Positions 2,552 to 59,308 of a stretch of 64,000 nt of DNA are shown piece after piece. The position numbers and the translations under genes are program-made. Source of the DNA: Oscillospiraceae bacterium (GTDB lineage: Bacteria > Bacillota > Clostridia > Oscillospirales > Acutalibacteraceae); assembly GCA_902792985.1 (NCBI GenBank), contig CADBBT010000004.1, positions 55,235 through 119,234 of the forward strand. Direction: 5' to 3'. Each line of letters starts with the position of its first letter. Position 1 is the stretch's first letter. The notes beneath the pieces were generated by a model that saw only the letters and a program-made list of their open reading frames with translations, had not been told where the DNA came from and searched no databases.

Positions 2552-2626
2552 TGGAGGTACCACCCGGATTTGAACCGGGGCATAACGGTTTTGCAGACCG
2601 TTGCCTTACCACTTGGCTATGGTACC
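2552..2626 (-). tRNA. tRNA-Cys (GCA)
   Basis: Reverse complement GGTACCATAGCCAAGTGGTAAGGCAACGGTCTGCAAAACCGTTATGCCCCGGTTCAAATCCGGGTGGTACCTCCA. Cloverleaf folds, anticodon loop is CTGCAAA, CCA is encoded. Confidence 0.93.
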
Positions 2627-2629
2627 ACA

Positions 2630-2705
2630 TGGAGCGGATGACGGGGCTCGAACCCGCTACCTCCACCTTGGCAAGGTGGCGCTCTACCAGATGAGCTACA
2701 TCCGC
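2630..2705 (-). tRNA. tRNA-Gly (GCC)
   Basis: Reverse complement GCGGATGTAGCTCATCTGGTAGAGCGCCACCTTGCCAAGGTGGAGGTAGCGGGTTCGAGCCCCGTCATCCGCTCCA. Anticodon loop is TTGCCAA. Confidence 0.93.
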
Positions 2706-2724
2706 ATATGCCGGTGAGACAAAA

Positions 2725-2801
2725 TGGCGACCCGGAACGGGCTCGAACCGTCGACCTCTAGCGTGACAGGCTAGCGTTCTAACCAACTGAACTACCGGGC
2801 C
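2725..2801 (-). tRNA. tRNA-Asp (GTC)
   Basis: Reverse complement GGCCCGGTAGTTCAGTTGGTTAGAACGCTAGCCTGTCACGCTAGAGGTCGACGGTTCGAGCCCGTTCCGGGTCGCCA. Anticodon loop is CTGTCAC. Confidence 0.93.
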
Positions 2802-29017: not shown

Positions 29018-29046
29018 TTGACATCGCGATTGCGATGCGGTATAAT
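29018..29046 (+). promoter_or_regulatory. rplJL promoter
   Basis: TTGACA TCGCGATTGCGATGCGG TATAAT with an exact 17-nt spacer. Confidence 0.75.
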
Positions 29047-29052
29047 AATCAA

Positions 29053-29190
29053 GCTGTTTACCAAAGACAGCAGGTGTTTTAACTGAAAGGCTTTTGCCGC
29101 CTGCCGAGGAGACTGCGCAAGTAGATTGTCTTACTGTGCCCTTTCTTCGGTTTGGAGAAAGGGCTTTTCTGTTGCACAAAATAATTTCAG
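29053..29190 (+). promoter_or_regulatory. rplJ (L10-type) ribosomal protein leader with an attenuator hairpin
   Basis: Structured leader of about 140 nt in the canonical position. GCCCTTTCT ... AGAAAGGGC followed by TTTTCT (29138-29170) lies just before the SD. Confidence 0.6.
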
Positions 29191-30330: not shown

Positions 30331-30945
30331 TTATTCTTCCGTCGTGCTTGCCGCCTTTGCCTTTTTCAGCGAGCGCAGCCGCGGCGCACGCAGGTCGAGC
30401 AGGGAGCCGAGGATCAGCGCGCCGATCACGGTGATGATGAGCTCCGGAAGCATATAGGAGCCGTTGTAGGTCAGCGAGTAGATCAGCACCGGCGTGTCCT
30501 CCGCGTAGCCGCCCCAGATCGTTGCGCCGGAAATGAAGTGGCAGATGAAGCGGATCACGGAAACGAGGGCGCCGCCCGCTGCCAGCGAAAGGGCCTGATT
30601 CTTGATCGTGCCGCGGAAAACGCCGCCCAGACCAAGGGACGAGAAGGCGATGACATAATCGGCAAAAATCAGGATCAAATAGGCCGCGATGCCGGTGACA
30701 TAGGAGAAGTTGGCAAGGCCGAACAGCATCTCAATGATGCCCATGGCAAGGCCGGTGAACAGACCCCATTTCACGCCGTGGCGGTAACCGATGACGACGA
30801 TCGGAAGCTGCGAGAAGAACGTCACCGAGCCGCCGTAGGGCAGTTTGATGGGCGTGAACTCGTTGAGCACAACGGCGAGGGCGAGCATGATGCCGCATTC
30901 CGCCAGCCGCTGCACGGAGGAGATGGATGATTTTTGATTCGACAT
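30331..30945 (-). CDS. thiT: thiamine ECF transporter S component (ThiT-like)
   Basis: 204-aa polytopic protein directly downstream of a TPP riboswitch. ATG at 30945 follows AAAGGAAG. Confidence 0.75.
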   Translation of the reverse strand: MSNQKSSISSVQRLAECGIMLALAVVLNEFTPIKLPYGGSVTFFSQLPIVVIGYRHGVKWGLFTGLAMGIIEMLFGLANFSYVTGIAAYLILIFADYVIAFSSLGLGGVFRGTIKNQALSLAAGGALVSVIRFICHFISGATIWGGYAEDTPVLIYSLTYNGSYMLPELIITVIGALILGSLLDLRAPRLRSLKKAKAASTTEE

Positions 30946-30970
30946 GGGAATCTTCCTTTCTTTTTGGGCG

Positions 30971-31009
30971 AAAAAAACACGCCCGTGAATTTTAAACATC
31001 ACAAGGCGT
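30971..31009 (-). terminator. TPP riboswitch expression-platform terminator
   Basis: Minus strand ACGCCTTGTGA...TCACGGGCGT followed by GTTTTTTT. Confidence 0.65.
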
Positions 31010-31013
31010 TTCA

Positions 31014-31243
31014 TTACGTCCCTACGCCGGCATTATCCGGATCAGGTTGGGTTTCACTTAGGTACCCGCTGATTAACTCGGTGCGTGAAGATTGGCGAGG
31101 AAATTTTTCGTCAGATGTAACAGAAATCGCGCAGCAAACCTGACGGTTTGTAAGAGATTTCTGTGCAAAATGACGTCAATGTTTGCGAATTCGAGTTAAT
31201 CAGTGGGTACTTAGCAGTGATCTCAGCCGTAGCACCCCTGTAA
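31014..31243 (-). promoter_or_regulatory. TPP (THI-box) riboswitch, interrupted by a 149-bp MITE
   Basis: Minus strand reads TTACAGGGGTGCTACGGCTGAGATCACTGCTAA [MITE] GTGAAACCCAACCTGATCCGGATAATGCCGGCGTAGGGACGTAA. All conserved TPP aptamer blocks are present (GGGGTGC, GCTGAGA, ACCC, CCTGATCNGGATAATGCCNGCG, AGGGA). Confidence 0.85.
31062..31210 (+). mobile_element. MITE copy A (149 bp, non-autonomous)
   Basis: 19-bp TIRs GTACCCGCTGATTAACTCG / CGAGTTAATCAGTGGGTAC, flanked by a TTAG direct duplication (31058-31061 and 31211-31214). It is the reverse complement of the element at 58784-58942. Confidence 0.85.
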
Positions 31244-31257
31244 CATTTATTGAATGC

Positions 31258-31286
31258 ATTATAGCACCGTGCCGGCGGAAAGTCAA
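31258..31286 (-). promoter_or_regulatory. promoter of the TPP riboswitch and thiT
   Basis: Minus strand TTGACT, 17 nt, then TATAAT, about 15 nt upstream of the P1 stem. Confidence 0.7.
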
Positions 31287-31294
31287 GGGCGCAG

Positions 31295-31323
31295 TTGCAT
31301 TTTTTGAAAAAACGTGCTACAAT
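31295..31323 (+). promoter_or_regulatory. queH promoter
   Basis: TTGCAT, 17 nt, then TACAAT, back-to-back with the thiT promoter. Confidence 0.6.
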
Positions 31324-31338
31324 GCTTACGGTGATGAT

Positions 31339-31977
31339 ATGCGCAATTATCAAAAAGAGCTGGACGCGCTGATCGAGCGCCATACGGCTGCGGGCGAGGT
31401 GCCGACGCTGCTGCTGCATGCCTGCTGCGCCCCTTGCAGCAGCTACTGTCTGGAGTATCTTTCACAGTATTTTTCGATCACTTTGTTTTATTACAACCCG
31501 AACATCTACCCCGCGCAGGAGTACACCCACCGTGTGCAGGAGGCGCGGCGCTTGTGCGCGACTCTGCCGGCAAAGCACCCGATCACCTTTTTGGAGGGCA
31601 CGTTTGATCCGCAGCGGTTTTATGACGCGGTACGCGGATTGGAGGGCGAACCCGAAGGCGGCGCGCGATGCCGGGTCTGCTTCCGCCTGCGGTTGGAGGA
31701 AGCGGCAAAACAGGCGAAGAAGGGCGGCTTCGATTATTTTACGACCACACTGTCGATCAGTCCGCTGAAAGATGCGGCTGTGCTCAACGAAGAAGGGGAG
31801 CGCGCCGCGGAAAAATTCGGCGTGCGCCATCTGCCGTCCAACTTCAAGAAAAAGGGCGGCTATCAGCGCTCCATCGTCCTGTCGAGGGAATATGACTTGT
31901 ATCGGCAAAACTACTGCGGCTGCGTGTTTTCGAATGCGCAGTCGAGGAATGTAGGGACTGAGGGATTAAGGGATTAA
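31339..31977 (+). CDS. queH: epoxyqueuosine reductase QueH (DUF208)
   Basis: LLLHACCAPCSSY motif and the CGC..S C-terminal motif. I chose the ATG at 31339 because the track start at 31183 lies inside the MITE. Confidence 0.85.
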   Translation: MRNYQKELDALIERHTAAGEVPTLLLHACCAPCSSYCLEYLSQYFSITLFYYNPNIYPAQEYTHRVQEARRLCATLPAKHPITFLEGTFDPQRFYDAVRGLEGEPEGGARCRVCFRLRLEEAAKQAKKGGFDYFTTTLSISPLKDAAVLNEEGERAAEKFGVRHLPSNFKKKGGYQRSIVLSREYDLYRQNYCGCVFSNAQSRNVGTEGLRD

Positions 31978-33403: not shown

Positions 33404-34957
33404 TCAGTCCTCACTATTCGCCGCTGCGTCCTGCGCGATCGCGGCCGCCATCTCGCGTTCGATCTGCGGGTCATAGGAGAGCATGGGCGCTTCGTCTTTG
33501 TTTTTGATCACGCGGTTCACATAGTTCTTTGTGATGCGTGAAACCACAGGGAAGAGCACTACAACGCCGATCAGGTTCGGGATCATCATCAAACCGTTGA
33601 ATGTGTCGGAAATGTCCCACGCAAGTGAGGAAGTCATGACGGCGCCGGAGATGATCATCAGCACAAAGATGATCTTATAGACAACGGTGGATTTCGTGCC
33701 GAAGAGGTATTCCACAGCCTTGGTGCCGTACTGCGACCAGCCGAGCACGGTCGTGAACGCGAACAGCAGCATGGCGATCGCGATGAACATCTCACCGAGG
33801 TAGCCGAAGGATTCGCCGAAGACCTGTGCAACGAGCGTCGCGTCGCTGATGCCCTCTTTGACAAAGCCGGTCGCAAGGTCGATATGGCCGGAGGAAAGCA
33901 CAACGATGGCGGTCATGGTGCAGACAACGAAGGTGTCGAAGAACACTTCAAAGATGCCCCACATGCCCTGACGGACAGGCTCTTTGACGTTGGAGGAGGA
34001 GTGGACCATCACAGAGGAGCCGAGACCGGCCTCGTTGGAGAACACGCCGCGCTTGCAGCCCTGGGTGATGACCTGGCTGATCGCGATGCCGGCCGCGCCG
34101 CCGACTGCGGCTTTGACGCCGAAGGCGAATTTGAAGATCGCGGCGAACATGGCGCCGATGTTGCGGTAGTTCATGATGCAGATGATCAGCGCGCCGACAA
34201 CATAGATGATGGACATGAACGGCACCACACGTTCGGCGAAGGAGGCGATGCGCTGCAGACCGCCGAGGATGATGAGGGCGGCAAGGATCATGAGCGCAAC
34301 ACCGATGATGATGCTGATCACGGGAATGCCGCCGACTGTGCCGAGCGCTTCGGGATTTTTGAAGAACGCGGACTGCAGGTTCAACGTGATCTTGTTGACC
34401 TGACCCATGTTGCCGATACCGAAGGAGGCGAGGACGGCAAAGATCGCAAACAGCACGGCGAGCACCTTGCTGATGCCTTTCATGCCTTTTTTGCTGCCGA
34501 GGCCGTCCGCAAGGTAGTACATTGCGCCGCCCGACCATTCGCCGTCACGGTTGCGGCGGCGGTAATAGATGCCGAGCACGTTTTCGGAATAGTTCGTCAT
34601 CATGCCGAGAAAGGCTGCGACCCACATCCAGAACACAGCGCCCGGGCCGCCGATCACGATGGCGGCGGAAACGCCTGCGATGTTGCCGGTACCGATCGTT
34701 GCGGCAAGGGCGGTGCAAAGCGCCTGGAACTGCGAGATGCTCTTCTTGTCGGTCTTTGCGCGCGAGGCGCTGCCTTTGCCGAAGATGCTGCCGATGGTCT
34801 CCTTCCACCAGTGACCGATGTGGGACACCTGGAAGAAGCGGGTGGAAACGGTCATGATGACGCCGGTTCCGATCAGCAGCACAAGGCCGATCTTGACCCA
34901 AACGAAGCCGTTGATGGCGTCGTTGACGGCAGCGAGTTTGTCAAAAAAGTTTTCCAT
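33404..34957 (-). CDS. alanine/glycine:cation symporter (AGCS family)
   Basis: ISQFQALCTALAATIGTGNIAGV signature. ATG at 34957 follows AAAGGAAAG. A glycine riboswitch precedes it. Confidence 0.88.
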   Translation of the reverse strand: MENFFDKLAAVNDAINGFVWVKIGLVLLIGTGVIMTVSTRFFQVSHIGHWWKETIGSIFGKGSASRAKTDKKSISQFQALCTALAATIGTGNIAGVSAAIVIGGPGAVFWMWVAAFLGMMTNYSENVLGIYYRRRNRDGEWSGGAMYYLADGLGSKKGMKGISKVLAVLFAIFAVLASFGIGNMGQVNKITLNLQSAFFKNPEALGTVGGIPVISIIIGVALMILAALIILGGLQRIASFAERVVPFMSIIYVVGALIICIMNYRNIGAMFAAIFKFAFGVKAAVGGAAGIAISQVITQGCKRGVFSNEAGLGSSVMVHSSSNVKEPVRQGMWGIFEVFFDTFVVCTMTAIVVLSSGHIDLATGFVKEGISDATLVAQVFGESFGYLGEMFIAIAMLLFAFTTVLGWSQYGTKAVEYLFGTKSTVVYKIIFVLMIISGAVMTSSLAWDISDTFNGLMMIPNLIGVVVLFPVVSRITKNYVNRVIKNKDEAPMLSYDPQIEREMAAAIAQDAAANSED

Positions 34958-35103
34958 GGAGTTCTTTCCTTTCACTGTGCGAGCGCACATTATTTTTATA
35001 AAAATAAAAACGAACCGTGTCAACGCGGTCCGCTCAAACAAAGGCAATTTCATCACGCCGAAAACCGCCCGGGCCGGGCAGCGGCGCAAGAAAAAACAAC
35101 TTT

Positions 35104-35260
35104 GTCCTTTTGCCTGAGAGATTCACGCGATGCGCTTTCACCTTCGGCACTGCATAAAACGCAGCTTCTCCAAAGTCCCGTCCGCTTACAGTCCGGTCGG
35201 CAGCACGGCTGCCAACACCTGAGAGTTTGACTCCTTCGGTCGCGCAAATGCGCATCTCCT
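35104..35260 (-). promoter_or_regulatory. tandem glycine riboswitch
   Basis: Minus strand aptamer 1 is GGAGA...ACCGAAGGAGTCAA..CTCTCAGG...GGAC. Aptamer 2 is GGAGAAG...GCCGAAGGTGAAAG...CTCTCAGGCAAAAGGAC. Confidence 0.88.
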
Positions 35261-56169: not shown

Positions 56170-56428
56170 ACATGAAAACGCGAGGAAGCGGAGGAGTACG
56201 TTCGGACCCTTTTCTCAGAGAGATGCCGGTCGCTGCAAGGCATTGAAAAGGCTGAACCGAAGTCGCCGCAGAGCGGTCGCAGGGAACAGATGTAGCTGCG
56301 AACGGGCGCTCCCGTTAAAGAGCAAGGCGTGTCAGCGCCGGAGTGCGGCCTTTGGTCGAAGAAGAGTGGTACCGCGGAAGAACAACGGCTCTTTCGTCTC
56401 TTTGAGAGACGGGAGCCTTTTTGTTTTT
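56170..56428 (+). promoter_or_regulatory. T-box leader (branched-chain amino acid; specifier probably GUC/Val, with CUG/Leu not excluded)
   Basis: AGTA and AGAGAG elements, distal loop GGTCGCTGCAA, T-box AGTGGTACCGCGG, and terminator GGCTCTTTCGTCTC TTTG AGAGACGGGAGCC plus a T-run. GAA-GUC-G (56259-56265) lies opposite the AGUA element. Confidence 0.82.
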
Positions 56429-58661: not shown

Positions 58662-58740
58662 TTCGGAATTGCGGTCGCGGGGGAATGATGTGCGGAAAGC
58701 GCGTGCTTCCCGCGACGAAGGTTTCCGAACCGATCATTCC

Positions 58741-58783
58741 TTAATCAATCAGGGGCGGCTTATGGCCGCCCCTGATTGATTAA
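58741..58783. repeat. perfect 19-bp-arm palindrome
   Basis: TTAATCAATCAGGGGCGGC TTATG GCCGCCCCTGATTGATTAA. It abuts MITE copy B, and its last 4 nt are the MITE target duplication. Confidence 0.8.
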
Positions 58784-58942
58784 GTACCCACTGATTAACT
58801 CGAATTCGCAAACATTGACGGTAATTTTCCGTCATTTTGTACAGAAATCTCTTACAAACCGTCAGGTTTGCTGCGCGATTTCTGTTACATCTGACGAAAA
58901 ATTTCCTCGCCAATCTTCACGCACCGAGTTAACAGCGGGTAC
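58784..58942 (-). mobile_element. MITE copy B (159 bp), inverted relative to copy A
   Basis: The reverse complement matches 31062-31210 except for one 1-nt indel, one substitution and one 11-nt indel. It is flanked by a TTAA duplication (58780-58783 and 58943-58946). Confidence 0.85.
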
Positions 58943-59308
58943 TTAAAAAATAAAGATGATATCGGCATCTTTTTTGAGATATTCCTCCATCTTGTTTAAG
59001 CTGTCTGCAGTGAACTGCGTTTGCAGCATGGTTTCTTTGTCGCAGCGCTCCATCACGATGAAAAACCGGTCGCGCAACGGTTCGTCCCAATCGTTTGCAA
59101 CGGTTTCATATGCTAAAACGCATTCAATGAACAAATCCGGCGCAGTCTCTTTCAGCGCCAGCAGCTGCTCCGCCAACGCAACCTCTTGCGGCGAATTGAC
59201 GCCCACAGCCAGATGCGATGTGGGATAGCGCCGCAGAATCAGCTCAAATTGATCGTTTCGTTTGATGACTTTGCGCTTGCTCAGACAGGCGATTTTTGTT
59301 TTTTCCAT
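58943..59308 (-). CDS. hypothetical protein (121 aa)
   Basis: GGAGGA SD lies 7 nt before the ATG at 59308. The gene is AT-richer than its flanks and I recognise no domain. Its TAA stop lies within the MITE target-site duplication. Confidence 0.55.
   Translation of the reverse strand: MEKTKIACLSKRKVIKRNDQFELILRRYPTSHLAVGVNSPQEVALAEQLLALKETAPDLFIECVLAYETVANDWDEPLRDRFFIVMERCDKETMLQTQFTADSLNKMEEYLKKDADIIFIF

Follow-up and report, generated by a model that had tools for sequence, protein, structure and literature searches.

A MITE inserted in the P3a loop of the thiT TPP riboswitch of an uncultured rumen Clostridia lineage

Results

The interrupted aptamer

We found that a non-autonomous MITE has inserted in the terminal loop of stem P3a of the thiT TPP riboswitch in an uncultured lineage of rumen Clostridia. 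The window, by which we mean the whole 64,000-nucleotide stretch of DNA that was analysed, holds the element on the minus strand at 31062–31210 (149 bp), with terminal inverted repeats at 31210–31192 and 31080–31062. It is flanked on the same strand by two copies of a CTAA target-site duplication: copy 1 at 31211–31214, the position of a single CTAA in the leaders of relatives L009, L010 and L012, and copy 2 at 31058–31061, identified from the sequence and the leader alignment. A preliminary description of this DNA had given the element 19-bp inverted-repeat ends. The repeats proved to be 19 nt long and complementary at 18 of 19 positions, or 22 nt long at 91% complementarity when part of the duplication is counted. 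Together the 149-bp MITE and the 4-nt duplication add 153 nt of RNA, and the length from P1 to P1 is 230 nt here versus 77 nt in an uninterrupted aptamer. The element is non-coding. The only open reading frames of at least 50 aa that touch it (30934–31143 on the plus strand, 31111–31419 and 31183–31977) run in from flanking sequence and also cover parts of the riboswitch and queH.

All aptamer helices and conserved nucleotides were unaltered relative to the empty-site leaders. The 5′ part of the aptamer (31215–31243, minus strand) consists of the P1 5′ strand UUAC (31243–31240), the P2 5′ strand GGGG, a short P3 (GC-UACG-GC), CUGAGA in J3/2, the P3a 5′ arm UCAC and the loop nucleotides UG, and is identical to that of the empty-site ortholog L009. 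The 3′ part (31014–31057, minus strand) consists of the P3a 3′ arm GUGA, a bridging A, the P2 3′ strand ACCC, the P4/P5 pyrophosphate arm ACCUGAUCCGGAUAAUGCCGGCGUAGGGA and the P1 3′ strand GUAA, which ends at 31014. Read along the minus strand, the order is GGGGTGC-TACG-GCTGAGA, the P3a 5′ arm TCAC, TG, CTAA, the element, CTAA, GTGA-A-ACCC, P4/P5 and GTAA. Both the CUGAGA of J3/2 and the pyrophosphate arm, ACCUGAUC-GG-UAAU-CC-GCGUAGGGA, are present and unchanged from the empty-site orthologs.

An Rfam search at the gathering threshold, which for RF00059 (TPP riboswitch) is 54.3 bits, yielded no TPP match in the window. In E-value mode RF00059 matched the 3′ half alone (31002–31076, 31.5 bits), and the interrupted leader of L001, another assembly of the same lineage, likewise fell below the gathering threshold. 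Empty-site leaders scored 61.9–63.8 bits on the same model, and four further ThiT lineages had uninterrupted aptamers scoring 57–75 bits. Precise excision of the insert from the window gives, base for base over 111 nt, the natural empty-site leader L009, which scores 62.2 bits against the 31.5-bit half-match obtained with the insert in place. We concluded that the sub-threshold score was caused by the insert alone, because the excision product is L009. That is, the earlier expectation that precise excision would restore a TPP aptamer was borne out. A clade-specific covariance model (R1), run with filters off, also gave no single match across the insert; two half-matches were obtained instead, one to the 5′ half (31169–31245, 25.7 bits) and one to the 3′ half (42.1 bits).

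An RNAalifold consensus of six clade members contained P1, P2, P3, P3a, P4 and P5, with compensatory changes at six pairs in P1 and P3a; five of the pairs with such changes across the clade belong to P3a. We regard P3a as a real but peripheral helix. It was reported in 552 of 907 TPP riboswitches and is optional in the family, and the crystal structure was predicted to accommodate it (Barrick & Breaker 2007, PMC2258182). The two CTAA copies lie between the P3a arms, in agreement with the preliminary placement of the insertion point in the loop of an optional hairpin.

The promoter, terminator and coding sequence of thiT were all intact, as had been proposed. The promoter (31258–31286, minus strand) has a −35 element TTGACT (31286–31281), a 17-nt spacer and a TG-extended −10 element TATAAT (31263–31258). 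It matches the sigma-70 consensus at 11 of 12 positions in addition to the extended-10 TG, is kept in the leaders of relatives, and is the sole promoter-like site on either strand of 30850–31450. The intrinsic terminator (30971–31009, minus strand) reads ACGCC-UU-GUGA, loop, UCAC-G-GGCGU, then G and U7. RNAfold folded it both unconstrained and constrained; a simple terminator scan did not pick it up because of its internal loop. Among close relatives (L001, L004–L006, L008–L010 and L012) the leader alignment showed it to be kept, barring one loop base. The thiT gene itself (30331–30945, minus strand) is preceded by the ribosome-binding site GGAAG, ~8 nt upstream, and its translation is an intact 204-aa energy-coupling-factor thiamine transporter S component. 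The product carries the Pfam domain PF09515 (Thia_YuaJ), and a 93% homolog has the NCBI name ‘energy-coupled thiamine transporter ThiT’.

Origin of the insertion

The spacer between queH and thiT is 393 bp in the window versus 240–241 bp in sister lineages whose ThiT proteins are 95%, 94% and 93% identical in amino acid sequence. The junction in the sister leaders holds either the single CTAA noted above or, in L004, a single TTAA, and the MITE was absent from all seven other ThiT lineages sampled. These comparisons upheld the preliminary view of the sequence as an insertion. By the same sequence comparisons, it is later than the split from the sister lineages with 93–95% identical ThiT. The same insertion, with the same junctions, was found in three other assemblies, L001–L003, which are every other assembly found for this lineage; an assembly artefact was thereby ruled out.

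That the extra 153 nt might have belonged to the leader from the start, or might result from faulty assembly, is an idea to which we give practically no credence. Against it stand the empty CTAA or TTAA sites in three sister lineages, the uninterrupted leaders of four further lineages, the same junctions in three other assemblies, and dozens of near-identical copies of the element elsewhere, with target duplications of their own. We considered it refuted by the empty sites and the shared junctions.

L001 and the window differed at a single place over 6.6 kb, a 12-nt indel inside the element. The MITE-bearing lineage is nearly clonal; thus, persistence of the insertion in it says little about selection, and testing the leader for selection inside the lineage had no power. 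In JGI metagenomes, neither allele had an exact match to its P3a region.

The MITE family and its target

The terminal-repeat pattern occurred three times in the window, versus 0.00 occurrences expected from shuffled sequences. One of the three marks the left end of a second complete MITE copy (58780–58946, plus strand; element 58784–58942, 159 bp), which is flanked by TTAA on both sides and is 98% identical to the 161-bp copy in the thiT leader of L001. This second copy lies directly 3′ of a GC-rich terminator-like hairpin. At least 30 copies, with a canonical length of 161 bp, were found in the goat-rumen Clostridia MAG RGIG3704 (about 45 loci), and further copies in RGIG3589 and on four metagenome contigs. 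A repeat-pattern search of JGI metagenomes returned only four true MITE copies, the remaining matches being confined to the 20 nt of the query. The terminal repeats have the same sequence in every family copy.

Compared with the canonical 161-bp member, the MITE in the thiT leader of the window lacks 12 internal nt at the 31177/31176 junction, within a hairpin and hence in a context prone to slippage. Both the 149-bp and the 161-bp variants were scanned for promoter and terminator consensus sequences inside the element, and no match was obtained. An internal promoter bypassing the riboswitch, or an internal terminator pre-empting it, was rejected on this basis. The 161-bp variant contains a hairpin, GACGG-UAAAUUUU-CCGUC, followed by AUUUUG, which is too weak for a terminator call.

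Perfect 4-bp duplications were present at 24 of 36 family copies. A target logo from 23 sites gave Y (20/23), T (18/23), A (18/23) and R (20/23), or YTAR, with CTAA the most frequent target among family copies. We infer that the P3a loop, G-CTAA-G, was chosen because it matches this consensus, and that neither RNA nor DNA structure played a part. Structural targeting of hairpin loops was rejected: the duplication lay in a loop at 7 of 23 reconstructed empty sites, versus 19% for matched tetranucleotide controls (p = 0.12).

Insertion sequences of the IS5 group make 4-bp YTAR target duplications, a feature that the window MITE shares. In contrast, no transposase or full-length partner with the MITE’s terminal repeats was present in the ~0.5 Mb examined, where repeat pairs 0.6–3.5 kb apart were limited to adjacent MITEs; a plasmid collection gave no such autonomous partner either. 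The MITE repeats, GTACCCRCTGATTAACTCG, also show no resemblance to known ends of IS5. Assignment of the MITE to the IS5 family is therefore a lead and not a result.

Predicted folding of the interrupted leader

As RNA, the MITE had a predicted folding energy of −52.7 kcal/mol (z = −7.96). In both the minimum free energy (MFE) and the centroid structures of the MITE-bearing aptamer the element folded on itself and extended P3a, with P1, P2, P3, P4 and P5 all kept; nearest-neighbour folding of this kind is blind to tertiary clashes. These structures match the earlier suggestion that the element would fold back, lengthen P3a and leave the aptamer arms intact. In the arrangement that we propose, the two terminal repeats would pair in the transcript (18/19 bp) and the interior of the element would pair with itself; the 153 extra nucleotides would thus form a rod that continues P3a outward. 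As a peripheral helix, P3a would stack on P2 at a distance from the ligand pocket, and P1, P2, P3, P4/P5 and the expression platform would be unchanged by the insert.

The antiterminator 5′ strand, UAAAUGUUACAGGG (31236–31249, minus strand), lies upstream of the MITE and shares nucleotides with P1 and P2 on their 5′ side. In the full-leader MFE structure it pairs with CCUUGUGAUGUUUA (31006–30993), a stretch that is also the terminator 5′ arm, and the same helix was obtained for MITE-bearing and empty alleles. Terminator and antiterminator are mutually exclusive, and both were predicted in all alleles. Without TPP, the P1/P2 5′ strand would join the terminator 5′ arm in the antiterminator; with TPP, P1 and P2 would retain that 5′ strand and the terminator would form. 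The energy gap between the antiterminator fold and the aptamer-plus-terminator fold was −1.0 kcal/mol in each of the three alleles (149-bp, 161-bp and excised), across which P1 pair probabilities were 0.58–0.60.

Prefix folds from nt 56 to ~190, about 135 nt of transcription, contained a decoy helix in which the left repeat AGUACCCACUG pairs with the P1/P2 5′ strand CAGGGGUGCU (predicted −16.6 kcal/mol). The terminal repeats mimic the strands of P2: the right repeat’s CAGCGGGUAC resembles CAGGGGUGC, the left repeat’s UACCCA resembles AACCCA, and model R1 aligns them so. During transcription the left repeat would capture the P1/P2 5′ strand temporarily, until, shortly before synthesis of the P2 3′ strand, the right repeat displaces the decoy by branch migration. 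The helix of right with left repeat is far more stable than the decoy, an 11-nt toehold is available, and the barrier from decoy to native fold was 2.5–5.5 kcal/mol (findpath).

We think it probable, with some reservation, that the riboswitch still shuts thiT off in the presence of TPP, though its efficiency may have changed, and that the MITE rides along as a tolerated, near-neutral passenger. A stronger version, which we put forward tentatively and with less confidence, is that this is a ligand-sensing riboswitch with a whole mobile element in its aptamer, whose P2-mimicking repeats would impose first a decoy and then a strand-exchange detour that alters the TPP threshold of thiT control or how leaky that control is. 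Against retained function, the P3 of this clade is unusually short (2–3 bp), and P3a may for that reason carry more weight than it does elsewhere, for instance in L5 docking.

The insertion could instead have broken ligand sensing, such that the aptamer fails to fold or to bind TPP in time, the antiterminator, being thermodynamically favoured, forms by default and thiT is constitutive through readthrough. The MFE structure of the full leader past the U-tract was the antiterminator in all alleles, so that a non-binding aptamer would default to the ON state; the decoy would hold the aptamer 5′ strand over its ~135 nt of transcription, and the covariance models failed to span the insert. Constitutive ThiT is probably mildly costly at most, and a broken allele could therefore persist in a near-clonal lineage. 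However, we judged loss of sensing unlikely. Helices and conserved nucleotides of the aptamer were all unchanged, the insert lies in a stem-loop that many TPP riboswitches do without, equilibrium P1 probabilities were the same with and without the element, and the barrier out of the decoy was low. In addition, the insert does not change the interval that separates the finished aptamer from the decision at the terminator.

If the decoy persisted, it would favour constitutive termination, as it holds a strand needed by both the aptamer and the antiterminator. The insertion might lower thiT expression, either because the decoy, which uses the same nucleotides as the antiterminator, withholds that strand, or because RNase III cuts the repeat duplex and destabilizes the thiT mRNA. 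The duplex of 18/19 bp, or 22 bp at its extended 91% complementarity, is a plausible RNase III substrate by analogy, as RNase III cleavage of transcribed Correia-element repeats has been documented in Neisseria (PMC10969869). We nevertheless consider reduced expression quite improbable: the left–right repeat helix with its toehold would outcompete the decoy across the modest barrier given above, cutting would leave regulation in place if it came after the termination decision, and the RNase III sensitivity of the duplex is itself putative. If the organism relies on uptake, a thiamine importer at strongly lowered levels would probably be disfavoured by selection; several assemblies nevertheless carry the allele.

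We also considered whether the element has been co-opted: it might delay folding or act as a chaperone-like decoy and so tune the TPP threshold, or it might be a processing site through which another signal governs the half-life of thiT mRNA. The mimicry of one P2 strand by each terminal repeat would fit such a role, as would the fact that the sole difference between the window and L001 falls inside the element. But the repeats are invariant across all family copies, and the mimicry was therefore not shaped at the thiT locus; seven other sampled ThiT lineages manage without the element, the lineage is not old enough to show selection, and the 12-nt deletion lies in a slippage-prone hairpin. 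Co-option thus seemed to us very improbable.

Discussion

The thiT locus described here is a neat natural experiment and not a new mechanism. The finding concerns a single insertion in a single uncultured lineage, and its tolerance by P3a would not astonish a specialist. Riboswitch aptamers are usually seen as compact and highly constrained, and homology models miss interrupted ones, as happened here. The locus illustrates that a transposable element can land in a permissive aptamer loop and persist in a natural population. If TPP sensing is retained, it would be the first documented case of a MITE in an aptamer.

The alleles form a natural series of three: inserts of 161 bp and 149 bp, and an empty site, found in a sister lineage, that is the exact excision product. 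This series makes it testable how much extra RNA and transcription time are tolerable inside the sensor of a terminating riboswitch, and how transient decoy helices affect co-transcriptional folding. A practical point follows for annotation: when half-matches of a split riboswitch flank a repeat, one should check for a mobile-element insertion before calling the gene unregulated.

We found no precedent for a MITE inside a riboswitch aptamer in the full-text literature searched, in reviews or in the Neisseria TPP paper, an absence there that is not proof. The cryo-EM scaffold of PMC11751092 was considered as a precedent for cargo carried by a TPP aptamer and rejected: its ‘P3a’ belongs to a different RNA, and the available part of that source leaves the scaffold-bearing TPP helix unstated.

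The closest regulatory counterpart is the terminator-type thiT TPP riboswitch of Lactococcus lactis (RSthiT), which has been validated experimentally (PMC8862789). The window aptamer shares with RF00059 and RSthiT the CUGAGA and ACCUGAUC..GG.UAAU.CC.GCGUAGGGA blocks and the P1–P5 architecture, in which P3a follows J3/2 and precedes the P2 3′ strand; it also shares the thiT context and the OFF logic through an intrinsic terminator, which is predicted here. In contrast, RSthiT has no obvious P3a, whereas the P3a of the window holds a 153-nt insertion. ‘Stem P3 is highly variable’, and long P3 stems occur in fungal and plant TPP riboswitches (PMC5997356). There too, a stem of the pyrimidine-sensor arm differs greatly in length, with function kept in those riboswitches and folding only predicted in ours. 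Their extensions, however, lie in P3, are typical of their lineages and are of unknown origin, whereas that of the window lies in P3a and stems from a datable transposition whose pre-insertion allele is extant.

As an element, the window MITE resembles Correia/CREE of Neisseria, ERIC of enterobacteria and RUP/BOX of Streptococcus pneumoniae, in that all are small, non-coding and multicopy, with inverted repeats and a target duplication, and can lie in 5′ leaders where the transcript folds into a long hairpin. Transcribed MITE hairpins are known as substrates of RNase III or RNase E (PMC10969869). The window MITE differs from these families in being unrelated in sequence, in its rumen Clostridia host, and in its location inside a ligand-binding aptamer rather than in the gap between promoter and gene. 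Rickettsia palindromic elements insert in genes for structural RNAs and proteins, where they protrude without destroying the fold. The likeness to the thiT case is that of a selfish palindrome at a tolerant position; the two differ in element class, host and target molecule.

The thiT leader and its empty alleles

On the minus strand, a promoter scan placed a strong promoter of the sigma-70 type (TTGACT-17-TATAAT plus an extended −10 TG) at 31286–31258, and the sequence that follows includes the 5' segment of a TPP aptamer (31243–31215): P1 UUAC, P2 GGGG, a very short P3 (GC-UACG-GC), CUGAGA, UCAC and UG. A first CTAA (31214–31211), a 149-bp element (31210–31062) and a second CTAA (31061–31058) separate it from the 3' part at 31057–31014, which comprises GUGA, A, ACCC, the pyrophosphate arm ACCUGAUCCGGAUAAUGCCGGCGUAGGGA and P1 GUAA. 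Further downstream are a hairpin terminator followed by U7 (31009–30971), a ribosome-binding site and thiT (30945–30331), which translates to 204 codons and matches Pfam PF09515. The promoter, terminator and gene are all present in order, in keeping with the preliminary description's statement that they are intact.

We compared public assemblies that encode the exact ThiT protein or its closest relatives. Three other assemblies with identical ThiT carried the same element with the same junctions; thus, an assembly artefact was ruled out. The queH–thiT spacer was 393 bp in the window, and it was 240–241 bp and element-free in lineages with 95%, 94% and 93% identical ThiT. In the 93% lineage (L009, L010 and L012) the site read GAUCACUG-CUAA-GUGAAACCC with a single CTAA, exactly matching the predicted excision product, and L009 was identical to the excised window leader over 111 nt, a stretch that starts in the transcription start region, spans the aptamer and runs into the terminator. 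Aptamers were likewise uninterrupted in four more distant ThiT lineages. We concluded that the element is an insertion in the TPP aptamer, as had been proposed.

The aptamer was intact (74.6 bits) in the lineage with 87% identical ThiT, where the queH–thiT spacer exceeds that of the other lineages by ~250 bp. This spacer contains short tandem GGGACAAG-like repeats, followed further along by CCCTCAAT-like ones that lie upstream of the thiT promoter (L102 340–420 and 555–615; L103 likewise).

No TPP riboswitch in the window reached the Rfam gathering threshold (RF00059, 54.3 bits), and L001, another assembly with the element, was likewise below it. In E-value mode Rfam gave only a 31.5-bit match covering the 3' half of the window aptamer, versus passing scores for empty sites in the relatives L004 (61.9 bits), L005 (63.8 bits) and L009 (62.2 bits); the excision product therefore scores as a TPP aptamer, as the preliminary description had anticipated. 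A clade covariance model, built from six aptamers of the clade, split the window aptamer into a 3' half (42.1 bits) and a 5' half (25.7 bits).

Several other RNAs in the window were above their Rfam thresholds: a T-box leader (56174–56404, plus strand), an L10 leader upstream of rplJ–rplL (29043–29179, plus strand), three tRNA genes (2555–2801, minus strand) and a glycine riboswitch (35092–35183, minus strand). The last adjoins an ORF at 33404–35089, a position at which L001 has a Na/Ala-symporter gene; in L105, from a further ThiT lineage, a tandem glycine riboswitch adjoins a gene of that type.

The element family

By every testable criterion (inverted repeats, target duplication, small size, non-coding sequence, multiple copies and empty sites) the element is a MITE. 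Its terminal inverted repeats are 19 nt with one mismatch. The repeat pattern matched three times in the window (0 expected); the third of these matches is the left terminus of another full-length copy, at 58784–58942, with TTAA on each side. Within 58735–58946, this copy is inserted directly at the 3' base of a long, GC-rich hairpin, AATCAATCAGGGGCGGC-TTAT-GGCCGCCCCTGATTGATT, which is probably a terminator and whose 3' arm (CCCCTGATTGATTAA) resembles the MITE's own repeat (CCCACTGATTAAC).

A scan of one genome per species with a 16-base pattern found ~45 loci (within L013–L087) in RGIG3704, a goat-rumen Clostridia bacterium MAG (JAFTCX01), and one in RGIG3589; the remaining matches were isolated singles from unrelated phyla, as chance could yield with a pattern of this length. 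RGIG3704 and the window represent different genomes, as no flanks match. Many RGIG3704 copies are 92–100% identical to the thiT-leader copy, a burst that implies recent activity of the family in that genome. The canonical copy is 161 bp, and shorter derivatives of 72–84 bp exist; two of these, L070 778–849 (72 bp) and L027 1810–1893 (84 bp), keep both terminal repeats but little of the interior. A search of ~0.5 Mb of sequence and of a plasmid collection revealed no autonomous partner.

The window copy is missing 12 nt (CGGTAAATTTTC) at 31176/31177 that L001, L002 and the canonical family carry, and their absence collapses a small hairpin, GACGG-TAAATTTT-CCGTC, to GACGTC; hairpin slippage or selection may have produced this deletion. 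It is the only difference between the window and L001 over 6.6 kb. The MITE-bearing lineage is thus almost clonal, and persistence of the element is therefore weak evidence of neutrality. That the MITE has been co-opted is highly improbable.

Insertion into the P3a loop

The landing site is the terminal loop of the optional P3a stem-loop, the hairpin that sits between CUGAGA and the P2 3' strand; this agrees with the position first suggested. P3a occurs in 552 of 907 TPP riboswitches and is predicted to stack coaxially on P2, and crystal structures leave room for it (Barrick and Breaker, PMC2258182). Within the clade it is always present, short (4–5 bp) and covarying (UCAC/GUGA, CCGUC/GACGG, CCGCA/UGCGG, CUGUC/GACAG), which argues that the stem matters; the insertion spares it.

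Perfect 4-bp duplications flank 24 of 36 family copies. The oriented target consensus is Y-T-A-R (20, 18, 18 and 20 of 23), preceded by G and followed by C; Y-T-A-R is the target of IS5-group elements. Because the P3a loop reads G-CTAA-G, sequence preference suffices to explain the site. Targeting of hairpin loops by the MITE was not significant (7 of 23 sites versus 19%, p = 0.12).

Predicted folding and regulation

Folding of full leaders of the empty alleles predicted a long-range antiterminator, in which the P1/P2 5' strand plus a few upstream bases (UAAAUGUUACAGGG) pairs with the terminator 5' arm and loop (CCUUGUGAUGUUUA). In the alternative predicted state P1/P2 is formed and the terminator folded. 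The platform would follow the usual OFF logic of terminator-type TPP riboswitches, of which the L. lactis thiT riboswitch is a validated example (PMC8862789).

In nearest-neighbour folding, which is blind to tertiary clashes in a clade with an unusually short P3, the MFE and centroid structures of the MITE-bearing aptamer transcript both kept P1, P2, P3, P3a, P4 and P5. The MITE formed a long hairpin prolonging P3a, upholding as a prediction the idea that it folds back on itself and leaves the other helices intact; its RNA alone gave −52.7 kcal/mol (z = −7.96). The 149-bp, 161-bp and excised alleles shared an energy gap of −1.0 kcal/mol between antiterminator and aptamer-plus-terminator, and their P1 pair probabilities were all 0.58–0.60. 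The stretch from aptamer end to terminator is unchanged, so the time available for a ligand-dependent decision should be the same. Scans of both MITE variants found no promoter-like or terminator-like consensus inside it. These predictions suggest that TPP control of thiT has probably been retained; that thiT is now expressed constitutively seems unlikely. Reduced expression is more doubtful still, with the 18/19-bp repeat duplex being a plausible RNase III substrate, of the kind whose cleavage is documented for Correia-element repeats (PMC10969869).

A transient decoy is also predicted. In prefix folding, transcription of the left repeat lets AGUACCCACUG form a 10-bp helix with CAGGGGUGCU, the P1/P2 5' strand; this helix has one bulge (fold −16.6 kcal/mol) and lasts until the right repeat emerges ~135 nt later. 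The left repeat would thus capture the P1/P2 5' strand. The right repeat, able to start from an unpaired toehold on its left counterpart, is predicted to form a far stronger helix and would then displace the decoy. The best direct refolding path out had a barrier of 2.5–5.5 kcal/mol, low enough that the decoy should not last long after the right repeat has been made. The decoy reflects a likeness of the repeats to the P2 strands (CAGCGGGUAC versus CAGGGGUGC, UACCCA versus AACCCA; 31235–31244 versus 31201–31211 and 31062–31071), which also explains why the clade covariance model independently aligned each repeat in place of the missing P2 strand. This mimicry is coincidental, because every family copy has the same repeats; it could nevertheless affect folding efficiency.

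Relation to known systems

The riboswitch, the thiT gene, the logic of regulation and the mobile-element class are all already known. Length tolerance of a peripheral helix is known for P3 of TPP riboswitches in eukaryotes (PMC5997356), whereas here the helix is P3a. What appears to be new is that a transposition into an aptamer loop can be dated and that its pre-insertion allele is still extant; the full-text literature searched, including reviews and a TPP riboswitch paper, contained no comparable case. The thiT-leader MITE offers a clean natural experiment and a warning to annotators, rather than a new mechanism.
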